Assembly (NCBI RefSeq): GCF_964243305.1
Contig: NZ_CAXTEF010000008.1
Span: forward strand, 7,269-71,268
Direction: 5' to 3'
DNA: 64,000 nt
From: an uncultured Hymenobacter sp.
GTDB taxonomy: Bacteria > Bacteroidota > Bacteroidia > Cytophagales > Hymenobacteraceae
Program-made: the position numbers and the translations under genes
The notes under the pieces: generated by a model
Told to the model about the DNA's origin: nothing
Database searches by the model: none
What the model saw: only the letters and a program-made list of their open reading frames with translations
Part shown: in pieces, positions 3,445 through 14,029 of the stretch
Layout of the letters: each line of letters opens with the position of its first letter
Numbering within the stretch: the first letter of the stretch is position 1

Positions 3445-4164
3445 TTATGCCCCATGCGCCACCAGGTGGGCGTGGTCGCGCAGCACGGTGCGCAGAAAGG
3501 CCTCGTCGCGCAGGTCGGTGTGGATGCCGGTCAGGGCCTTCACCTTGTTGGCCGTCTCGTTCAGCAGCAGGTAGTTTTCCTTGCGGGTGCTTTGGTAGAG
3601 CAGCTGACGCAGCAGGGCGGCGTCGTGGTCGGAGAGCTGGGCGGCCTGCGGAAACACCACCTGGTAGCCGGGCGGCGGCAACTCGGTGGCCAGCGCGCCA
3701 CGAAAATCGGTGGGCCGGCGGCGCAGGCTGATGACGGTGGTGCCGGCCGCCAAATCGCCCAGGCGCTGCCCGCGGCCGTTGAGCAGAATAGTGAGAATGG
3801 CCACGCCGCCCAGGCAGGCCACAATCTCCAGGGGCCGCAACAGCCAGCGCAGCAGGTAGTCGCCGAGACCGGGCCGGGTGCCGTCGAGGCGCACCACGCG
3901 CAGGTCGCGGGCTTTTTTGCCCAACGACTGCCCGTTGAAGAGCACCTCGCAAAGCAGAAAATAGAACGTAGTGGGCGCCATCATCAGCAGCATCACCGTG
4001 TTGCCCAGCCCGAAACCGAGTTGGTTGCGCAGCACCCCGAAAAAAATAAACCACACGATATAGAGCGCATAGTCGATGAGCGTGGCCAGCAGCCGGTCGC
4101 CCACGCTGGCCGTTTCGTATTCCAGGGTGACGTTCTGGGTGGTTTGGACGCGAATCGTGGCCAT
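3445..4164 (-). CDS. RDD-family membrane protein
   Basis: Motifs ASVGDRLLATLIDY, GQSLGKKARDLRVV and QRLGDLAAGTTVI, with hydrophobic helices. Confidence 0.9.
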   Translation of the reverse strand: MATIRVQTTQNVTLEYETASVGDRLLATLIDYALYIVWFIFFGVLRNQLGFGLGNTVMLLMMAPTTFYFLLCEVLFNGQSLGKKARDLRVVRLDGTRPGLGDYLLRWLLRPLEIVACLGGVAILTILLNGRGQRLGDLAAGTTVISLRRRPTDFRGALATELPPPGYQVVFPQAAQLSDHDAALLRQLLYQSTRKENYLLLNETANKVKALTGIHTDLRDEAFLRTVLRDHAHLVAHGA

Positions 4165-4343
4165 TGGCAGGTGGGAATTTAAGGAAGCCGCAGCACGCCA
4201 GCGTATTCTTTGGCCGGCGTCGCGAATCTGCTGCGAACCTAACGCCCGGCGCGGCTTTCTGTTTGGCGGCGGGCCCCGAACCAGCCGGCTTCCTACATTT
4301 ACTTTTCTCTTTCCCGGCGCCCACTATTCCCTACCCCCCTGCT

Positions 4344-5333
4344 ATGCGCGAAGCCCTTTTCCTGCGCCAAAACCAGGACCGCTGGCGCGGCTACGAAGCC
4401 CGGCCCGCCGCCGGCCCTGCCGGGTCGGACCCCGACGAGCTGGCCGCCCGCTTCGTGGCCCTGACTGACGACCTGGCCTACGCCCAGACGTTCTACCCCG
4501 CCTCGCCCACCACGGCCTACCTCAACACCCTGACCGGGCAGCTGCACCAGCGCCTTTATAAAAACAAAGCCGAGGGCCGCGGCCGGCTGCGGCAGTTCTG
4601 GGGCACCGAGCTGCCGCTGGTCGTGGCCCGCAACCGCCGGCCGCTGCTGCTGGCCGCGCTCGTGTTCGGGCTCTTCGCCCTGATTGGCGCCTTGTCGGCG
4701 GCCTACGACGACTCGTTTGTGCGCGTCGTGCTCGGCGACGAGTACGTGAACCGAACGCTGGAAAACATCCACCGCGGCGACCCGATGGCCATCTACAAGA
4801 GCGAGAACGAGACGCCCATGTTCCTGTTTATCACCTTCAACAACGTGCGCGTGGCCCTGCTCACCTTCGCCAGCGGCATCACGGCTGGCGCGGGCACGCT
4901 CTACCTGCTCTTCACCAACGGCGTGATGCTGGGCGCGTTCCAGTATTTTTTCTACCAGCAGCACGTGCTCCAGGCCTCGCTGCTCAGCATCTGGATTCAC
5001 GGCACGCTGGAAATCTCGGCTATTATTCTGGCCGGCGGCGCGGGCCTGGTCATGGCGCGGGGCCTGCTCTTTCCGGGCACCTTCAGCCGGGCCGAAGCCT
5101 TTCGCCACTCGGCCCGCGAGGGGTTGAAGCTGGCCGTCGGGCTGGTGCCGATTTTCATCGTCGCCGGCTTCCTGGAAGGCTTCGTGACGCGCCACACCGA
5201 AATGCCGGTGGCCGCCAGCCTGGCTATCATTGGCTCCTCGGCGGCGTTTATGGGCTGGTACTTTGGCCTTTATCCGGGCCAGGTGCAGCGCCGGCTGGCC
5301 CAGGCCGCCGCCCAGCCGCCGCCGGCCCCCTGA
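4344..5333 (+). CDS. Stage II sporulation protein M (SpoIIM/DUF95)-like membrane protein
   Basis: ATG at 4344 (MREALFLRQNQDRW) is preferred to the track start. Motifs DDLAYAQTFYP, NNVRVA, NGVMLG, IHGTLEISA and GFLEGFVT. Confidence 0.88.
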   Translation: MREALFLRQNQDRWRGYEARPAAGPAGSDPDELAARFVALTDDLAYAQTFYPASPTTAYLNTLTGQLHQRLYKNKAEGRGRLRQFWGTELPLVVARNRRPLLLAALVFGLFALIGALSAAYDDSFVRVVLGDEYVNRTLENIHRGDPMAIYKSENETPMFLFITFNNVRVALLTFASGITAGAGTLYLLFTNGVMLGAFQYFFYQQHVLQASLLSIWIHGTLEISAIILAGGAGLVMARGLLFPGTFSRAEAFRHSAREGLKLAVGLVPIFIVAGFLEGFVTRHTEMPVAASLAIIGSSAAFMGWYFGLYPGQVQRRLAQAAAQPPPAP

Positions 5334-5381
5334 TTTTAGTTATGCTTATCCTATCCTCTTATTCTCTACCCCCCCTCGCGC

Positions 5382-6362
5382 ATGGCAATACTCTTTACCC
5401 AGGAAGCCGACTTTCGCCAGGAGCGCGAGTTCGGCCAGAAAATTAGCGCCGCGTTCGACTTCATTCGGGTGCACTGGCGGCCATTGGGCCGGGTGCTGCT
5501 CTACACGGTGCTGCCCGCCGCTCTGCTCACCGGCGTGCTGAACTCGACGCTGCAGCTCACAATGTGGAGCAAGCTCACGGCGCCGGCCACGGCCGGCCTC
5601 CGCGGCGCCCAGGCCCAGCTGGCCCAGCTAAGCGAGCTGACCGGCTCGCCCCTCTACTGGCTTAATCTGCTGCTGACCATCGCCTTTTTCAGCCTGCTGG
5701 TGCTCAGCGTTTACGGCTACGTGCTCGGCTGCCTGCGCGGCGCGGCCAGCCGCCTGGCCAGCCCGGACGGCGCCGACTCCCTACCCCCCGCCGCTGGCGT
5801 AAGCGTGGCCGAGGTGTGGCGGGTTATCCGGCGCGAGTTTGTGAGCACCTATTTCTCCATTTTCGGCATTTATTTTCTGATTGGGGTAGGCTTCTTTTTT
5901 CTGGTGCTGCCGGGCCTGTACCTCAGCATCATGCTGAGCCTGTTTTTCATTGTTAAGCTGGTTGAGGGCACCGGTTTTCGGGATACCGTCGGCCGGTGCC
6001 GGCAGCTGATTCGGGGCAAGTGGTGGTCTACGTTCGGGCTTATTTTCGTGATGGGCCTGCTGGTTTGGGGCTTGTTCATTCTGGTGGGCATCGTCTCGAC
6101 ACTGCTCGGGGGCGGGGCCGCCGTGCTGCTCCGCGGCAATGCCTGGCAGTCGCCGGTGTTCGTCATCGTCGCCAACACACTCAGCACCGGGCTGGCGCTG
6201 CTCTTCTACCCGCCGCTGCTGCTGGTGCTGGCTTTTCAGTATTTTAATCTGGTCGAGCGGCAGGAGGGCGTAGGTCTGCGCGGCCTCGTGGGGCAGTTGG
6301 GCCAGGTCGGCCCCACGGCCCGCAACGCCAGCTACCGGGCCAGCGAGGAGGGCGAATATTAA
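5382..6362 (+). CDS. Multi-pass membrane protein of the RDD/SpoIIM/MoxR cluster (GDPD-membrane-domain-like)
   Basis: RQEREFGQKISAAFDFIR, several TM helices, GKWWSTFG, and YFNLVERQEGVGL at the C-terminus; positioned within the cluster. Confidence 0.75.
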   Translation: MAILFTQEADFRQEREFGQKISAAFDFIRVHWRPLGRVLLYTVLPAALLTGVLNSTLQLTMWSKLTAPATAGLRGAQAQLAQLSELTGSPLYWLNLLLTIAFFSLLVLSVYGYVLGCLRGAASRLASPDGADSLPPAAGVSVAEVWRVIRREFVSTYFSIFGIYFLIGVGFFFLVLPGLYLSIMLSLFFIVKLVEGTGFRDTVGRCRQLIRGKWWSTFGLIFVMGLLVWGLFILVGIVSTLLGGGAAVLLRGNAWQSPVFVIVANTLSTGLALLFYPPLLLVLAFQYFNLVERQEGVGLRGLVGQLGQVGPTARNASYRASEEGEY

Positions 6363-6449
6363 GTTCTGCCAACAGGGCCTGGGCCGCCAGCAGGGGGGTA
6401 GGGAGCAGCTTTTTTAAAACGATACCAGGTAACATTTAACAAGTTTGCG

Positions 6450-7298
6450 GTGAGGCCAGCGGCAGCAGCATTTTCCAGCCGGGGGGCCCGCCCTTCCCAG
6501 CCCTCCCGGCGCGGGCCGCACCAGCTGGCGGGCGCGCTGGCTTTCCTCGGCCTGACCCTGAGCCTGGCCTTGGCCCCACCAGCCGCGGCCGGACCGGGCC
6601 CTACCCCCCCTGATTCGGCCCAGGCCACCGCCGCGCTGGGGCGGCGCCCGCTGCCGCCCGACCTGACCGCGCCGCTGCCCCCGCGCCCGGCTGATGCGGC
6701 CCGCCTGCGCGAGCTGCGCCAGCAGCGCGAGTTCACCTACGTCGAGGCCGCCCCGGAAGCGGCGAGCGCCTGGGACTTGTTCTGGCGGCGCGTGGGGCAG
6801 GCTTTGCGGCGCTGGCTGGCCAGCCGCAGCTACGAGGGCTTCTGGCGCTGGGTGTTCTACGCCCTGTTCCTGGGCGCGGCGGTGTTCATCGTGCTCAAGC
6901 TGCTGCAAGTCGATGTGACGGGTGCCTTCGGCCGCTCGGCCCGTCCGGTGCCGCTGGGCTACGATACGCTCGCGGAGAACATCCACGAGGTTGACTTTCA
7001 GGCCCGCTTGGCCGAAGCTGAGGCCGTCGGCAATCACCGCCTGGCCCTGCGCCTGGGCTACTTGCAGCTGCTCAAGCGCCTGGCCGACCACGGCCTGATT
7101 GCCTGGCAGCCCGACAAAACCAACCACGCCTACCTGGCCGAGCTGCCCGCCGCCGGCCCCCTGCGCCCCGCCTTCGGCGAGCTGACCCGGCAGTTCGAGT
7201 ACGTCTGGTACGGCGAGCTGCCGCTGCCCGCCAGCCTCTACGCCGAGGCTCGCGCCGGGCAGCAGGCGCTGAGCCGGGAGCTGGGGGAAGCAGGATGA
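6450..7298 (+). CDS. DUF4129 domain membrane protein
   Basis: Signal-like N-terminus and one TM. C-terminal ALRLGYLQLLKRL..WQPDKTNHAY..FEYVWYG pattern. Confidence 0.85.
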   Translation: MRPAAAAFSSRGARPSQPSRRGPHQLAGALAFLGLTLSLALAPPAAAGPGPTPPDSAQATAALGRRPLPPDLTAPLPPRPADAARLRELRQQREFTYVEAAPEAASAWDLFWRRVGQALRRWLASRSYEGFWRWVFYALFLGAAVFIVLKLLQVDVTGAFGRSARPVPLGYDTLAENIHEVDFQARLAEAEAVGNHRLALRLGYLQLLKRLADHGLIAWQPDKTNHAYLAELPAAGPLRPAFGELTRQFEYVWYGELPLPASLYAEARAGQQALSRELGEAG

Positions 7299-7458
7299 GA
7301 GCTGTCGCGCAAAAAGGCGGTCATGCTGAGCCTAAGCGAAGCATCTCTACCGCAGCACTAATTCAATTTTTGAAAAAGCTGATTACTACCCCACGCGAGA
7401 TGCTTCGCTTAGGCTCAGCATGACCGCCTTTTTGCGCGACCTTTTTGCGCGACAGCTC
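7299..7458. repeat. Long palindromic element (GTCATGCTGAG...CTCAGCATGAC family), copy 1
   Basis: Perfect 44-bp arms at 7304-7347 and 7397-7440. A 13-bp tandem duplication CTTTTTGCGCGAC follows at 7441-7453. Confidence 0.93.
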
Positions 7459-7497
7459 ACCGTAATTTAGGGTGTTATATAGCACCAAATCTATTAT

Positions 7498-9012
7498 ATG
7501 ACCTCGCTCCGCTGGTACCTGCTCGGCCTGCTGGCCTTATTCGGCGCCTTTGTGGCGCTGGAATACTACCGGCCCCGGCCGCTGGACTGGCGCCCCACCT
7601 ACCTGAGCAAGGAGAAGATTCCCTACGGCACCTTCGTGCTTTATGACCAACTGCCGCGCCTGCTCGGCACCGACTCGGTGCAAATCGTGCGCGTGGCGGC
7701 CTTCAACCAGCTCACCGGCATTGCCGCCGACCCGGAGGAGTTTGAGGACGTGGAGGAGCTGGTTGAGCCCGCTACCGACACGGCGCAGGCCGCCGACAGC
7801 GCCAGCCGGCGGACGGGATCCCCGCCGGCCCCCGCAGCGGCCGACAGCGCCGCCGACATAGTGCAACCCGAAACTGACGCAGCGCCCGCAACTGATTCAG
7901 CAGTTGAAACCGGCGAGAAAGCAACCAGCGGCGAGCTAGCCACTGAGCAAAGCAAGGAAGCCGACGCCCCTACCGACACCACGCGCCCGGCAGCGCGGGA
8001 TGAAATTCCGTTGCGCCCGGCCCGCGCCAACTACCTGTTCATCGCCGAGGACATCCGCCTGGCGCCCTCCGACACGCGGGCACTGCTGCGCTACGCCGCC
8101 CAGGGCCACGACGTGTTCATCGGCGCCGAGGACTTCGGTGGCACCCGCCCCGGCTCGCTGGCCGACTCGCTCGGCTTCGAGAGCCGCGCCCTGGACTTGG
8201 GCGTGCCCCGGCTGAAAGCGGGCGCTGCCCCTACCCCCCCCGATTCGGTGAGCCTGCGCTTCACCAACGCCGGGCTGCGCGGCCCAACCTACCGCCTGCC
8301 GGGCGAGGGCGGCGCGTATCGGCTGAGCGTGGCGGCCGGCCGCCGCGGCGCCACGCTGGCCGCCGACGCGCAGGGCCGGGCCGTCTTTATTCGATTAGAT
8401 TACGGAAAGGGCCATTTCTACCTGTGCTCGGTGCCGCTGGCCTTCACCAACTACTTCGTGCTGCGGCCCCAAACCACGGGCCTCGCCACCGGGATGCTCT
8501 CCTACCTGCCGCCGCGCCCGGCCTGGTGGGACGAATATGAGAAAACGGGGCCCGTCGGCGAGCAGTCCTTGCTGCGGGTGCTGCTGGCCCACGACGCCCT
8601 GCGCATGGCCTTCTATCTGAGTTTGCTCGGCGGGCTGCTGTTTGTGCTGATTGAGGCCCGGCGCCGGCAGCGCATCATTCCCACGCTCAAGCCCTTGCCC
8701 AACACTACGCTGCTGTTTACGCGCACTGTGGCCGGCCTCTACCAGCAGGGCCGCAGCCACGCCCTGATTGCCGAGAAAAAAGTCAGTCTGTTTCGGGACT
8801 ACCTGCGCACCCATTTCCAGGAGCCTACCCCCGACTTCGGCGACGAAGCTTTTCGTGAGCGGCTGGCCCACAAAGCCGGCCTGCCCCGCGCCCGCGTCGA
8901 TGAGCTGCTGCGCCTCGTCAACTTTGCCCGCACCGCCCCCCAGGTCACTGACCGCGAGCTGCTCCGGCTCAGCCGCGCGCTGAATGACTTTCGGCGCGAG
9001 GCCAAGCGGTAA
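7498..9012 (+). CDS. DUF4350 domain protein
   Basis: N-terminal TM, W.PTY...KIPYGT motif, C-terminal TM followed by RRRQRIIP..PN.TL.F.RTVAGLY. Contains an acidic low-complexity insert. Confidence 0.82.
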   Translation: MTSLRWYLLGLLALFGAFVALEYYRPRPLDWRPTYLSKEKIPYGTFVLYDQLPRLLGTDSVQIVRVAAFNQLTGIAADPEEFEDVEELVEPATDTAQAADSASRRTGSPPAPAAADSAADIVQPETDAAPATDSAVETGEKATSGELATEQSKEADAPTDTTRPAARDEIPLRPARANYLFIAEDIRLAPSDTRALLRYAAQGHDVFIGAEDFGGTRPGSLADSLGFESRALDLGVPRLKAGAAPTPPDSVSLRFTNAGLRGPTYRLPGEGGAYRLSVAAGRRGATLAADAQGRAVFIRLDYGKGHFYLCSVPLAFTNYFVLRPQTTGLATGMLSYLPPRPAWWDEYEKTGPVGEQSLLRVLLAHDALRMAFYLSLLGGLLFVLIEARRRQRIIPTLKPLPNTTLLFTRTVAGLYQQGRSHALIAEKKVSLFRDYLRTHFQEPTPDFGDEAFRERLAHKAGLPRARVDELLRLVNFARTAPQVTDRELLRLSRALNDFRREAKR

Positions 9013-9235
9013 TCTGCTGAATTATACCCATTTTGCAACTGGTTTACGGCGTGATTCCCAATTATTGCACTGAGGCAAGAAGCAGGTTTTTGCTTGAATT
9101 GCACAATTTTAATAAAGTGCCTTTACGGTCATGCTGCGGGCGCTTATGCTCACTTTTAGCTGACTTTATTCGGGCTTTAAGCCTTTCCCGCTCTTTGCTT
9201 TTCACCGCTCCGGCCTGTCTCGTCTGCTTCTCTTC

Positions 9236-10375
<1,140 letters not shown>

Positions 10376-10403
10376 CTTATCAGGCTATGGGCCCCTTACA
10401 TCC

Positions 10404-10506
10404 GTCATGCTGACGAAGGAAGCATCCTATCACGCCTTAACCAGCAGTATATCACTAATTACTGCGTCGTTCAAGCGCGGTAGGATGCTTCCTTCGTCAG
10501 CATGAC
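10404..10506. repeat. Long palindromic element, copy 2
   Basis: Perfect 26-bp arms GTCATGCTGACGAAGGAAGCATCCTA (10404-10429) and TAGGATGCTTCCTTCGTCAGCATGAC (10481-10506). Confidence 0.93.
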
Positions 10507-10538
10507 AGCCGATTTTTTGCCGTCTACTTCTTTTATCC

Positions 10539-11882
10539 GTGTCCTTTTTCCTCACCCGCCGCTTCTTCCTCGCCCTCGGCGCCTTGGTCTTCGGCTTCAC
10601 CGTGGCCTTTTTCCTACCCTGGCTGCTGGCGCCAATGTACATTCTGCTCGGGCTGCTCGCGTCGCTGAGCTTGCTCGACGCGGCGCTGCTCTACCTCGGC
10701 GGCGGGCACGTGTTCGGGCGGCGGGCGCTGGGCGACAAGCTGGCCAACGGCTCGGACAATGAGGTGCAGATTTATATGGAAAACCGCTATCGCTTCGGCG
10801 TGCAGACCGAGACGATAGACGAGATTCCGCACCAGTTTCAGCGGCGCGACGTGCTGTTCCGAACCGCCGTGAAGTCGGGTGAGACGCGCGTTATCCAGTA
10901 CCAGCTGCGGCCGGTGAAGCGGGGCGAGTATGCGTTTGGGGCCCTGAACGTGTACGTGGCTTCGCCGCTGGGGCTGGCGCGGCGGCGCTTCCGCTTCGAC
11001 CGGGAGGGCGTGACGGTGCCGGTTTATCCGTCGTTCTTGCAGATGCGGCAGTACGAGCTGCTGGCCATCAGCAACCGGCTCACGGAAGTGGGCGTCAAGC
11101 GAATCCGGCGCGTGGGGCAGAGCCTGGAGTTCGAGCAAATCCGGCCCTACGTGGCCGGCGACGACCCGCGCTCCATCAACTGGAAAGCCACGGCCCGCCG
11201 TAGCGCGCCCGGCGCGGGCGCCGACGCGCTGGTCGTCAACCACTTCCAGGACGAGCGCGCTCAGCAGGTGTACTGCCTGATTGACAAAGGCCGGGTGATG
11301 CGGATGCCGTTTGAAGGCCTGAGCCTGCTCGACTACGCCATCAATGCCACGCTCGTCGTGAGCAACATCGCCCTGCTCAAGCACGACAAGGCCGGCCTCA
11401 TTACCTTCAGCAACCGCCCCGGTGCGGCCGTGGCCGCCGACCGCCGCCCCGGCCATCTGTTGAAGCTGCTGGAAGTGCTCTACCGTCAGAAAACCCGCTA
11501 CCTGGAAACCGATTTTGAGCTGCTCTACGCCACGGTGCGCACCAAAATCAGGCAGCGCAGCCTGCTGCTGCTGTTCACCAATTTCGAAACCTTGCAGGCC
11601 ATGCAGCGGCAGTTGCCGTATCTGCGCCGGCTGGCGAAGGACCACTTATTGCTGGTCGTGTTTTTTGAGAACACCGAGCTGCGCGCCTTTCTCGATGCGC
11701 CGGCCCTGACGACGGAGGACGTGTACAATCAGACCATCGCCGAGAAATTCGCGCAGGAAAAGCGCCAGATTGTGCTCGAATTGCAGCGGTACGGCATCTA
11801 TTCGTTGCTCACGGCGCCCAAGGATTTGACGGCAAACACCATTAACAAGTACCTGGAATTTAAAGCTCGCGGATTGATATGA
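10539..11882 (+). CDS. DUF58 domain protein (vWA-like MoxR partner)
   Basis: N-terminal TM pair, EFEQIRPYVAGDDPRSINWKATAR and a degenerate MIDAS-like CLIDKGRVM; lies directly after moxR. Confidence 0.92.
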   Translation: MSFFLTRRFFLALGALVFGFTVAFFLPWLLAPMYILLGLLASLSLLDAALLYLGGGHVFGRRALGDKLANGSDNEVQIYMENRYRFGVQTETIDEIPHQFQRRDVLFRTAVKSGETRVIQYQLRPVKRGEYAFGALNVYVASPLGLARRRFRFDREGVTVPVYPSFLQMRQYELLAISNRLTEVGVKRIRRVGQSLEFEQIRPYVAGDDPRSINWKATARRSAPGAGADALVVNHFQDERAQQVYCLIDKGRVMRMPFEGLSLLDYAINATLVVSNIALLKHDKAGLITFSNRPGAAVAADRRPGHLLKLLEVLYRQKTRYLETDFELLYATVRTKIRQRSLLLLFTNFETLQAMQRQLPYLRRLAKDHLLLVVFFENTELRAFLDAPALTTEDVYNQTIAEKFAQEKRQIVLELQRYGIYSLLTAPKDLTANTINKYLEFKARGLI

Positions 11883-11885
11883 CAG

Positions 11886-11993
11886 ATTTCACGCAGTGTC
11901 TCGCAGTGTTAAGGCGCAGTGTTCCGCAGTGTTGTTCCAGAACGGCACTGCGGGACACTGCGTGTTTTAACACTGCGAGACACTGCGTGAAAT
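11886..11993. repeat. Palindrome built from periodic CGCAGTG units
   Basis: Perfect 27-bp outer arms at 11886-11912 and 11967-11993, plus an inner imperfect arm pair. Four CGCAGTG units lie on the left and four CACTGCG on the right. Confidence 0.9.
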
Positions 11994-14029
11994 TTTGTTT
12001 GCTTCTCATATCGCTGAGCGCCGCCGCCCAGCCCGCTTCCCCGCTGCTGCCCATCCCCGCCCAAACCCAGTTCGGCCGCGCCGCCCTACCCCTCAAAGGC
12101 CCCTTGAAGCTGGTGCTGGAAACAACCCTGGACCCGCGCGTGGCCGCCAGCGCCCGCCAAGTCATCAAGGTGCTGCCCAACGGCACGGCGAAAGCCGCCG
12201 GCCTACCCCTGCAAATTCGCTACGGCCGCGTGGGGCAGGCCGAAAAGCAGGACGAGGAAAAATACAGCCTGCGCATCACGCCGCTGGGCGTCAGCATCTC
12301 GGCGCCGACCAGCCTGGGCGTGCTGCGGGCGCTGGCCACGCTGCGCCAGCTGCCCCGGCGCGCAGGTCGCGGCTGGGAGTTGCCCGAAGTAGATATCGAT
12401 GACCAGCCGCGCTTTGCCTGGCGCGGCCTCTCCCTCGACGTGGCCCGCCATTTTTTGCCCGTGGCCGTGGTCAAGCGCAACCTCGACGGCATGGCGGCCG
12501 TGAAGCTCAACGTGCTGCACTGGCACCTGTGCGACGACCAGGGCTGGCGCGTGGAAAGCCGGCTGCTGCCGCGCTTGCAGGGGGTAGGCGCCGCCACGGG
12601 CGGCTACTACACCCAGGCCCAGGTGCGCGAGGTGCTGGCTTACGCCGCCGCCCGCGGCATCCGCGTGGTGCCCGAGTTCGACTTGCCCGGCCACGCCGGC
12701 GCCATCATCGCCGCCTACCCCCGCCTGGCCTCGAACCCCGACTCCAGCACCGCCGTGCCCACGCGCTGGGGCGTGCTCAACATCGCCATCGACCCAACCA
12801 GGGAAACCACTTATACCCTGCTCGACTCGCTGCTGACGGAGATGACCGGCCTGTTTCCGGACCCGTATTTTCACATCGGCGGCGATGAAAACGACGGCCG
12901 GCAGTGGCGCCGCAACCCGCGCATCGTGGCGTTTATGCTGGAAAAAGGCTTCGTGAAAGCCAATGGCCAGCCCGACAAGCACCAGTTGCAAACCTACTTC
13001 AACCGCCGGATGCTGGCTTTGCTGCAACGGCAAGGCAAAACGATGGTCGGCTGGGATGAGATTCTGGGTCCCGACCTGCCGGCGCCGGTCGTAATCGAGA
13101 GCTGGCGCGGCCCCAAGGGCTTGCTGGAAGCCGCGCGCCTGGGCCACCCCGCTCTGCGCGCCCACGGCTACTACGTTGACCTTTACCAAACCGCCGCTGC
13201 CCACTACGCCGCCGACCCGCAGCAGGGCGTGCCCGACTCGCTGGCCCGCCGCGTGCTAGGCGGCGAGGCGGCCATGTGGCTGGAGTTTGCCGACTCCGTA
13301 ATCGTGGATTCGCGCATCTGGCCCCGCGCCGCCGCCGTGGCCGAGCGGCTGTGGTCACCGGCCGCCCTCAGCCAGGATGTGCCCGATATGTACCGCCGCC
13401 TGGCTTTGGTCAGCGAGCAGTTGGACAGGCTGGGCCTGCGCCACCGCCGCGCCCCGGCCCGCCTGCTGAAAGACATTGCCGGGCCCAGCGCCAGCGCCGC
13501 CGAGCAGGCCGCGCTGCGCAATCTGGCCGGCGTAGTAGAGCCGGTGAAGGAATATCAGCGGCACTTTCAGGGCTTTAAATACTCAACCGAAACTTCGCTC
13601 AACCGTCTCGTGGACGCCGCCCCGGCCGAGTCGGAAGTGGCGCGCCGCTTCGCCGCCACCGTGGACAGCCTGCTGGGGCCGGCACCGGCCCTGAGTCCCA
13701 CCACGAATTCCCTACCCCCCCCTACCACGCGCAAGCACTATTTGGCTACGCTGCGCGCCCAACTAACCACGTGGCAGCAAACCGACTCGCAGCTGGCGCC
13801 GCTGCTGGCCCGGCAGCCCCTACTACGCGAATATGCACCCCTATCGGCCAGTCTTAGCGCGATTGCCACGTTACTACTGCAACGCCTGAAGCAGCTGGAA
13901 AGCAGCGAGCCAACCCAGGCAGGCCCCGGCGCGCCCGCCCGCCTGCTGCTGCCCGCCGCCGTGGCCAAGCCCGCCGGGCAGGCCACGCTGGCGCCCGCCC
14001 TGCTGCGGGCCGCGGGCCGGCTGCTGTAG
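11987..14029 (+). CDS. Glycoside hydrolase family 20 beta-N-acetylhexosaminidase
   Basis: PRFAWRGLSLDVARHF, LNVLHWHL.DDQGWR, PEFDLPGH, catalytic HIGGDE and LGGEAAMW. GTG at 11987 gives a signal peptide (MKFCLLLISLSAAAQ). Confidence 0.95.
   Translation: MKFCLLLISLSAAAQPASPLLPIPAQTQFGRAALPLKGPLKLVLETTLDPRVAASARQVIKVLPNGTAKAAGLPLQIRYGRVGQAEKQDEEKYSLRITPLGVSISAPTSLGVLRALATLRQLPRRAGRGWELPEVDIDDQPRFAWRGLSLDVARHFLPVAVVKRNLDGMAAVKLNVLHWHLCDDQGWRVESRLLPRLQGVGAATGGYYTQAQVREVLAYAAARGIRVVPEFDLPGHAGAIIAAYPRLASNPDSSTAVPTRWGVLNIAIDPTRETTYTLLDSLLTEMTGLFPDPYFHIGGDENDGRQWRRNPRIVAFMLEKGFVKANGQPDKHQLQTYFNRRMLALLQRQGKTMVGWDEILGPDLPAPVVIESWRGPKGLLEAARLGHPALRAHGYYVDLYQTAAAHYAADPQQGVPDSLARRVLGGEAAMWLEFADSVIVDSRIWPRAAAVAERLWSPAALSQDVPDMYRRLALVSEQLDRLGLRHRRAPARLLKDIAGPSASAAEQAALRNLAGVVEPVKEYQRHFQGFKYSTETSLNRLVDAAPAESEVARRFAATVDSLLGPAPALSPTTNSLPPPTTRKHYLATLRAQLTTWQQTDSQLAPLLARQPLLREYAPLSASLSAIATLLLQRLKQLESSEPTQAGPGAPARLLLPAAVAKPAGQATLAPALLRAAGRLL

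Follow-up and report, generated by a model that had tools for sequence, protein, structure and literature searches.

The best described relative of the locus studied here is arc2, antagonism resistance cluster 2 (arc2A-G, PA4317-PA4323), of Pseudomonas aeruginosa. In a transposon sequencing (Tn-seq) experiment under attack by Burkholderia thailandensis with its T6SS (type VI secretion system), six of its seven genes were hit, and deletion of PA4323 in strain PAO1 reduces survival under this attack (PMC8926400). The defect is no worse when a PA4320 deletion is added to the PA4323 deletion (PMC8926400), which indicates that both genes act in one pathway. Removing ColA, a colicin-like protein predicted to form pores in the inner membrane, from the aggressor relieves it in part; arc mutants have no phenotype under general stress, and the genes stay at a low level of expression until Gac/Rsm is triggered (PMC8926400). 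For PA4317-23, Ting et al. (2022) name only a MoxR-like ATPase and a protein bearing a vWF (von Willebrand factor) domain as members (PMC8926400). Here we analyse a seven-gene locus at positions 3445-11882 of a 64,000-nucleotide stretch of DNA from an uncultured Hymenobacter sp. (contig NZ_CAXTEF010000008.1, positions 7,269 to 71,268), referred to below as the window. An earlier note on this DNA had presented the locus as an envelope system with no assigned function, a statement that does not hold, as the Pseudomonas counterpart arc2A-G has a published T6SS-defence phenotype. We lean, with modest confidence, towards the view that the locus represents, in Hymenobacter, a widespread Arc2-type cassette of seven families, with the architecture, mechanism and membrane-protection role proposed below.

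The locus and its immediate surroundings comprise the following features.

3445-4164, minus strand: RDD-family membrane protein, 239 aa, three predicted transmembrane (TM) segments and a tail of ~110 aa (Pfam RDD, 68.3 bits; counterpart of arc2B/PA4318).
4165-4343, no strand: intergenic region between the divergent RDD and SpoIIM-like genes, presumed to hold divergent promoters.
4344-5333, plus strand: SpoIIM-like polytopic membrane protein, 329 aa, with a cytoplasmic N-terminal domain of ~100 aa (Pfam SpoIIM, 139.9 bits; counterpart of arc2C/PA4319).
5382-6362, plus strand: polytopic membrane protein, 326 aa, 5-6 TM segments, probable divergent GPDPase_memb/UPF0259/DUF975 member (counterpart of arc2A/PA4317).
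6450-7298, plus strand: DUF4129 protein, 282 aa (Pfam DUF4129, 52.5 bits; counterpart of arc2D/PA4320).
7304-7440, no strand: palindromic element resembling repetitive extragenic palindromes (REP-like), with perfect 44-nt arms, in the DUF4129-DUF4350 spacer (repeat family).
7498-9012, plus strand: DUF4350 protein, 504 aa (Pfam DUF4350, 40.2 bits; counterpart of arc2E/PA4321).
9236-10375, plus strand: MoxR (MRP-type) AAA+ ATPase, 379 aa (AAA_3, 211 bits; AAA_lid_2, 93 bits; counterpart of arc2F/PA4322).
10404-10506, no strand: REP-like palindromic element in the MoxR-DUF58 spacer (repeat family).
10539-11882, plus strand: membrane-anchored DUF58 protein carrying a vWA (von Willebrand factor A) domain, 447 aa, pseudo-MIDAS (from metal-ion-dependent adhesion site) D-K-G-R-V-M (Pfam DUF58, PF01882, 55.9 bits; counterpart of arc2G/PA4323).
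11886-11993, no strand: palindromic repeat with a terminator-like hairpin (11915-11962 and T-tract), the likely end of the transcription unit.

All seven open reading frames (ORFs) were recovered in the layout that the earlier note had described, with one RDD gene transcribed divergently from six genes that share an orientation. Its claim that every product but MoxR carries TM segments also agrees with the hydropathy profiles, in which each of the other proteins has at least one strongly hydrophobic segment of 19 residues. An NCBIfam scan of the window proteins added nothing to the Pfam assignments. For each of the cassette's five membrane families the genome has essentially one copy, the sole extra being a weak RDD match (33 bits) in a 171-aa ORF. 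The closest cassette copy found is that of H. aranciens, with 73% identity in SpoIIM.

The correspondence with arc2 was established through published primers. Metagenome contigs were scanned for the deletion primer dPA4320_F1, and 108 loci (L106-L213) contained the exact 23-mer. All 108 have a SpoIIM gene and, where the locus is long enough, further cassette genes in the same order; the longer ones read polytopic-RDD-SpoIIM-DUF4129-DUF4350-MoxR-DUF58, all co-directional. On contig L119, a 394,903-bp record of P. aeruginosa type with 68.5% GC, four PA4320 primer segments match at the expected spacing, among them R2 and those parts of the two junction primers that lie nearest the gene. PA4320 is therefore the L119 ORF 2064-3635, the DUF4129 gene. 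The Pfam families of L119 are, in order, GPDPase_memb/DUF975-like (partial), RDD (70 bits), SpoIIM (135 bits), DUF4129 (29 bits), DUF4350 (125 bits) and MoxR, inside which the record ends after six families; the related full locus L202 closes with DUF58 (114 bits). The PA4323 primer encodes the DUF58 motif EFHQLR, and on our reading PA4323 would be the DUF58 gene.

The window proteins match these families directly or by profile. The best hits of the arc2-type RDD, SpoIIM and DUF58 proteins in this genome are the window genes, and these hits are reciprocal: the PA4318-type protein finds the window RDD protein at 37.6% identity, and the arc2G-type protein scores 147 bits against the window DUF58, compared with 73 bits at most against the DUF58 paralogues. 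Three weakly conserved families were linked to the window proteins by profile-profile comparison, with hhalign values of 98.4% (product of 5382-6362 against the proteobacterial arc2A-type profile, E 7e-15), 93.5% (DUF4129 against the arc2D-type profile) and 96.2%. Sequence comparison thus shows the seven protein families to be identical in the window cassette and in arc2A-G. The two clusters share the order of the DUF4129-DUF4350-MoxR-DUF58 core and the D-x-G-R-x-M motif of DUF58. They differ in that the polytopic, RDD and SpoIIM genes of Pseudomonas are all co-directional, whereas in the window RDD is divergent and SpoIIM precedes the polytopic gene. Moreover, the Pseudomonas DUF4129 protein has ~520 aa against 282 aa in the window, Gac/Rsm control applies to the pseudomonads only, and the Hymenobacter genes are set apart by spacers with REP-like elements.

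As an observation on the primer itself, its 23 nt (TGTTCGGCTTCTACATCATGAAC), which encode FGFYIMN in SpoIIM, match exactly in 108 different metagenome contigs. At least one of them, L202, shares only ~75-77% overall DNA identity with L119 despite the exact primer match, an unusual conservation of the SpoIIM motif at the DNA level among high-GC bacteria.

The cassette is inherited as a unit, far beyond chance. SpoIIM was found above the cut-off in 44 of 121 sampled Bacteroidota genomes, and in 40 of these 44 the same contig carries a DUF4350 match no more than 3.5 kb away, as expected from the co-occurrence that the earlier note had assumed. Among 20 DUF4350-anchored loci from at least 12 families, 19 have the order RDD (minus strand), then SpoIIM-polytopic-DUF4129-DUF4350-MoxR-DUF58. 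The wide conservation stated in that note is likewise borne out by the SpoIIM-anchored loci from named genomes, where 57 of 80 have the full set of seven families, most of the others being interrupted by contig ends. These 80 loci come from Bacteroidota and from Calditrichia, Chlorobiales and Ignavibacterium metagenome-assembled genomes. MoxR and DUF58, which the note had tied to the membrane genes, travel with them in a conserved, self-contained cassette. In one Bacteroidota family no sampled genome has it (0/25), so inheritance is patchy and all-or-none. The SpoIIM-alignment search returned loci of the Fibrobacteres-Chlorobi-Bacteroidetes (FCB) group only, and for evidence across phyla the analysis drew on annotation tables, primer mapping and plasmid records. 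The order is DUF805-DUF4129-DUF4350-MoxR-DUF58-SpoIIM-RDD on a Paracoccus plasmid and on pRL11-type replicons of Rhizobium; the gene combination therefore survives rearrangement. No conserved extra neighbour or 'client' gene was found, the best flanking family occurring in 14 of ~100 loci and being lineage-specific.

Some loci were noted for other reasons. In a single sampled Bacteroidota genome, of the same class, the SpoIIM match lies on contig C8 and the DUF4350 match on C10, and the cassette may be split. The Rhizobium cassette adjoins a RES/Xre toxin-antitoxin pair (L103, pRL11, 1170-2275). In several Rhizobium strains SpoIIM aligns in two to three pieces and is possibly frameshifted (tblastn H72, H73, H78, H84-H87), which suggests that the cassette is dispensable. 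A Mycobacterium intracellulare plasmid match (H65) was rejected as a cassette, being a different, Bat-like MoxR-DUF58 operon.

Related gene sets extend beyond these groups. The mycobacterial Rv3689-Rv3695 region (moxR2 = Rv3692, with counterparts in M. chelonae and M. abscessus), known from annotation tables, has consecutive genes for a membrane protein, DUF4350, MoxR, DUF58, SpoIIM and RDD, and is co-regulated in M. chelonae RNA sequencing (PMC8191103). It differs in its setting, a Gram-positive-type envelope, and in having SpoIIM on the opposite strand. In archaea, a 'predicted secretion or membrane remodelling complex' shares the core of arCOG01314 (DUF4350), COG0714 MoxR and vWA, but it additionally comprises surface proteins of the S-layer and Ig-like kinds, and its published component list is without RDD, DUF4129 or GPDPase_memb-like members; SpoIIM homologues adjoin vWA and COG0714 genes in several bacteria (PMC5898192). 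A literature search on DUF4350, DUF4129, Rv369x and moxR2 found no functional studies.

This distribution bears on a second explanation, in which the cassette performs housekeeping assembly or quality control of membrane proteins, acting on an inner-membrane complex of the cell's own, or on the membrane as such, to mature or maintain it, and the Pseudomonas T6SS/ColA phenotype is the indirect result of a weakened envelope. Its presence in Actinomycetota (PMC8191103) and that of related modules in archaea (PMC5898192), where T6SS defence makes little sense, would suit such a role, as would a MoxR phylogeny that broadly tracks taxonomy, suggesting mostly vertical descent, and the fact that MoxR systems typically mature specific complexes. 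On the other hand, a housekeeping function is hard to reconcile with the patchy, all-or-none pattern, with the possible SpoIIM frameshifts in Rhizobium, with the lack of a general-stress defect and the very low basal expression in the arc system (PMC8926400), and with the failure to find any client gene linked to the cassette. We consider it unlikely, although it deserves serious weight.

The DUF58 gene of the cassette belongs to a lineage of its own, and the MoxR gene may do so too. The window MoxR has intact Walker A (GVPGVAKT) and Walker B (VLIDEINRA) motifs in translation. Its low-complexity N-terminal extension of ~70 aa (window 9236-9440), rich in Pro, Ala and acidic residues, is typical of Hymenobacter, and orthologues of other genera, at ~325-332 aa, are without it. 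In total, four genes of the genome encode MRP-type MoxR proteins and four encode DUF58 proteins. One other pair belongs to a separate canonical Bat-type operon (contig C16:69254-71567), in which MoxR and a 290-aa DUF58 with a DASASM MIDAS are followed by BatA, and two further MoxR and two further DUF58 genes lie elsewhere. No BatA is present in the cassette, the BatA of the genome adjoining this other MoxR-DUF58 pair. In the MoxR tree, cassette copies, alphaproteobacterial ones included, are split from the three paralogues of this genome with support of 90/80.

The DUF58 protein gave the clearest signature. The degenerate MIDAS, DKGRVM, pointed out in the earlier note is real, but it is not local decay: cassette-type DUF58s carry the pseudo-MIDAS D-x-[GS]-R-x-M, with the Arg in 77 of 79 FCB and alphaproteobacterial copies. 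The window protein has no canonical DxSxS and shows DKGRV at the aligned position, while its three paralogues in the same genome retain DxSxS (DVSPS, DVSAS and DASAS). Thus the apparent degeneration is a conserved lineage signature. In proteobacterial cassettes the motif is D-x-G-R-R-M in 27 of 28 copies (DCGRRM in 23, DTGRRM in 3, DSGRRM in 1). These alignments show the cassette DUF58 as a distinct, dedicated lineage with D-x-G-R-x-M across phyla, and the pseudo-MIDAS is probably a metal-independent binding face.

Other MoxR systems differ from the cassette. The MoxR-DUF58-TgpA operons, whose TgpA-type proteins combine a transglutaminase with a DUF4129 domain in common with the cassette, and the Bat/MRP operons (MoxR-DUF58-BatA-E) contain the same MRP-type MoxR and DUF58 pair. 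Their DUF58s have ~290-330 aa and DxSxS, in contrast to the 447-aa cassette protein, and the cassette has neither a transglutaminase nor BatA, the transglutaminase-core genes of the genome lying elsewhere. NorQ-NorD, RavA-ViaA and CbbQ-CbbO, in which an AAA+ MoxR hexamer works with a vWA adaptor, provide a model for coupling to a membrane-protein target (PMC9976466, PMC13036017). They have a functional MIDAS and a known enzyme client, whereas the MIDAS of the cassette is replaced.

The replaced metal site also weighs on the proposal that MoxR-DUF58 loads metal into an unlinked enzyme, like NorQD, CoxD or MxaR, with the membrane proteins supplying the ion. There is general precedent for this among MoxR-vWA pairs, and one RDD protein is reportedly a cation/proton antiporter. 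As D-x-G-R-x-M stands in place of the MIDAS throughout the lineage and no linked metalloenzyme was found, we judge a function in metal-cofactor insertion or ion homeostasis extremely improbable.

The DUF4350 protein was modelled with AlphaFold2 (AF2; predicted local distance difference test, pLDDT, 81). The large extracytoplasmic domain foreseen in the earlier note appears in the model as an α/β domain between TM segments 2-24 and 366-391, followed by a cytoplasmic helical domain (405-503). In Foldseek searches the domain matched a GH42 β-galactosidase (E 6.5e-6) and IFT52 (5fms, E 2.3e-4); it resembles the GIFT domain of IFT52 and the trimerisation domain found in GH42 β-galactosidases and in GH164 enzymes. 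Its flavodoxin-like α/β fold is like that of GH42 domain B and IFT52-N, without a catalytic triad, in line with what Makarova et al. (2015) obtained with HHpred (PMC5898192). Gly and Pro make up all the invariant residues of the periplasmic domain, which include neither Cys nor His, so the domain is not an enzyme. The most conserved stretch of DUF4350 is a cytoplasmic juxtamembrane motif, R389-x-Q391-R392-x-I394-P395...P..N402..F, which is likely to be a docking site. Residues 88-169 (window 7759-8004) form a Hymenobacter-specific insert, low in complexity, rich in Pro, Ala and acidic residues and disordered (AF2 pLDDT <50); orthologues from other genera have ~400 aa and no such insert. The possibility that the C-terminal helical domain is a DUF4129-like bundle was ruled out (hhalign probability 0.8%).

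The DUF4129 model (AF2, pLDDT 80) has an N-terminal TM segment or signal, a Pro-rich linker, TM segment 128-151 and a four-helix bundle (183-281), which the predicted TM hairpin arrangement places in the cytoplasm. A fold search with it gave no significant structural relative, only a weak likeness to HEPN-like four-helix bundles (2hsb, E 0.32) that we do not claim. Sequence-profile searches of the PDB with DUF4350 and DUF4129 returned nothing significant.

The DUF4350 fold bears on the suggestion, made by Makarova, Galperin and Koonin in 2015 for the archaeal DUF4350-MoxR-vWA neighbourhood (PMC5898192), of a novel secretion or transport apparatus; here GldG-like DUF4350 and the polytopic proteins would form a conduit that MoxR-DUF58 assembles or gates. 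The likeness to GldG/GIFT and GH42 trimerisation domains (Foldseek; PMC5898192) and the GldG-like topology (TM segment, periplasmic domain, TM segment) are in its favour. Yet the bacterial loci have no linked cargo, S-layer or Ig-like surface genes, the cassette has no outer-membrane component, MoxR ATPases are remodellers and not translocases, and the role of arc2 is defensive, not offensive. A secretion apparatus is thus very unlikely.

The remaining membrane proteins were assigned as follows. The start of the SpoIIM-like protein at ATG 4344 agrees with the orthologue consensus MRExxF..N.DKW, and its gene is single-copy in the genome. The 5382-6362 protein itself has no Pfam or NCBIfam hit, UPF0259 being below threshold (E 0.68). 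When 51 orthologues were scanned singly (E <= 0.05), 18 matched GPDPase_memb (PF10110; best E 1.9e-8) and 11 matched UPF0259/YciC (PF06790; best E 6.4e-8). By these family matches, the product is probably a divergent member of the GPDPase_memb/UPF0259/DUF975 superfamily. In two Bacteroidota loci of family f11 (L010:5708-7687 and L011:6956-8731), a fused gene joins SpoIIM to a C-terminal half that is like the polytopic protein (hhalign 95.6%, E 1.3e-8). Such a Rosetta-stone link argues for physical association of the two proteins. Many non-Bacteroidota loci (L021, L116, L149, L153, L165, L172 and further metagenome loci) have, upstream of SpoIIM, tandem RDD paralogues numbering two to four, which take the place of the usual single RDD and polytopic proteins.

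Clear membership of the SpoIIM family raises the question of the cell wall. In Bacillus subtilis, SpoIIM recruits SpoIID and SpoIIP, and the SpoIIM-like protein could similarly recruit peptidoglycan hydrolases under the control of MoxR-DUF58. In keeping with such a scaffold, Rv3694c and Rv3695 of M. tuberculosis were co-purified with the divisome protein Rv0954 (PMC8093794), although this co-immunoprecipitation list is long and unvalidated. The 99.6%-complete genome has no SpoIID or SpoIIP homologue, leaving the SpoIIDMP engulfment set incomplete, and no hydrolase is linked to the cassette in ~100 loci. We hold a cell-wall remodelling scaffold to be highly improbable.

Taken as the Arc2-type cassette that we favour, the seven products may be arranged in a single machine. 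The SpoIIM-like, GPDPase_memb-like and RDD proteins would form an inner-membrane platform, spanned by DUF4350 and DUF4129 with two predicted TM segments each. DUF4350 would expose a non-catalytic domain of oligomerisation type to the periplasm and its conserved basic motif and helical domain to the cytoplasm, where DUF4129 would present its four-helix bundle. The TM-anchored DUF58 would keep the MoxR hexamer at the membrane, in the way that NorD tethers NorQ. The mechanism described for MoxR-vWA pairs offers a precedent, a finger lying in the pore with the MIDAS turned to the target (PMC9976466, PMC13036017); the vWA domain may likewise plug the MoxR ring while its Arg-bearing pseudo-MIDAS face grips the cytoplasmic tail of a partner. 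ATP hydrolysis would then remodel the membrane complex through these tails. The analogy to NorQD and RavA-ViaA makes it plausible that a membrane-protein complex is assembled or remodelled by an ATP-driven machine, as the earlier note had proposed. The role that would be transferred from arc2 is to protect or repair the cytoplasmic membrane as foreign toxins that insert into it, for instance pore-formers resembling colicins, arrive from the periplasm.

Several points tell against this interpretation. Identity to the Pseudomonas proteins is low (27-48%) and three families are detectable by profiles only; with identity this low, function transfer from arc2 is an inference. The separation of the cassette MoxR from its paralogues is only moderately supported, with long branches. 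A later CRISPR interference screen, in which other T6SS aggressors were used, failed to pick up the arc2 genes (PMC12663445), which makes the phenotype a narrow one, and the ColA link of arc2 defence is only partial (PMC8926400). Finally, the cassette also occurs in mycobacteria (annotation tables, PMC8191103) and has relatives in archaea (PMC5898192). As neither are classical T6SS targets, anti-T6SS defence cannot be the general function, and the ancestral role was probably broader.

A bolder possibility is that cassettes of Arc2 type serve generally as a dislocase or repair system for membranes, powered by the AAA+ ATPase. Foreign helices that enter the cytoplasmic membrane, from pore-forming bacteriocins or T6SS pore-formers, would be captured by the polytopic proteins, the periplasmic domain of DUF4350 would sense or corral them, and MoxR-DUF58 would pull on the cytoplasmic tails via the Arg-bearing pseudo-MIDAS, so that the pore is extracted or inactivated. 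This is speculative, and we think it doubtful; if true, it would amount to a broad-spectrum innate immunity to pore-forming toxins from Bacteroidota to mycobacteria.

The peculiarities of the Hymenobacter copy lie mainly in its spacing. Orthologues outside Hymenobacter show translational coupling, their gaps running from -4 to +10, while the window genes are 48-223 nt apart and two spacers contain REP-like hairpins (7304-7440 and 10404-10506). In Hymenobacter species the DUF4350-MoxR and MoxR-DUF58 gaps range from tens to hundreds of nt. The REP-like family of these two elements occurs genome-wide, with ~90 copies of the core GGTCATGCTGAGC and 358 of GTCATGCTGA in 4.6 Mb. The third palindrome (11886-11993) is of a different repeat type, built on CACTGCG(A/G)GACACTGCG; its hairpin at 11915-11962, after the DUF58 stop, is likely to mark the end of the transcription unit. 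A long GH20 hexosaminidase ORF (11879-14029) starts within this palindromic repeat and overlaps DUF58 by 4 nt. Because its first ~36 codons read through the repeat, the overlap is spurious, an artefact of ORF calling, and the real start is probably the GTG at 11987 (VKFCLLLISLSAAAQP, signal-peptide-like). A sigma-70-type scan found no promoter-like site on the plus strand of the cassette region. The Bacteroidota -7 motif TAnnTTTG was absent from the plus strand of every spacer, its frequency being no higher than chance, and neither type of motif was found in the divergent region 4165-4343.

Cassettes of this kind have been noted in comparative genomics since 2015 and were named from a phenotype in 2022. 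The Hymenobacter copy is an ordinary one, which adds chiefly that the cassette tolerates splitting by REP-like elements. The details that are new here are the cross-phylum DUF58 pseudo-MIDAS, the DUF4350 fold and motif, the SpoIIM-polytopic fusions and the loosening of the Hymenobacter gene cluster by REP-like palindromes. Sites that can be mutated are now defined, namely the pseudo-MIDAS Arg, the DUF4350 juxtamembrane motif and the SpoIIM-polytopic fusion. The cassette is among the most widespread MoxR systems: besides Bacteroidota and other FCB phyla, it occurs in Proteobacteria and in Actinomycetota, M. tuberculosis among them. Tying the copies of Bacteroidota, Rhizobium and mycobacteria to arc2 gives a testable phenotype in many tractable organisms.

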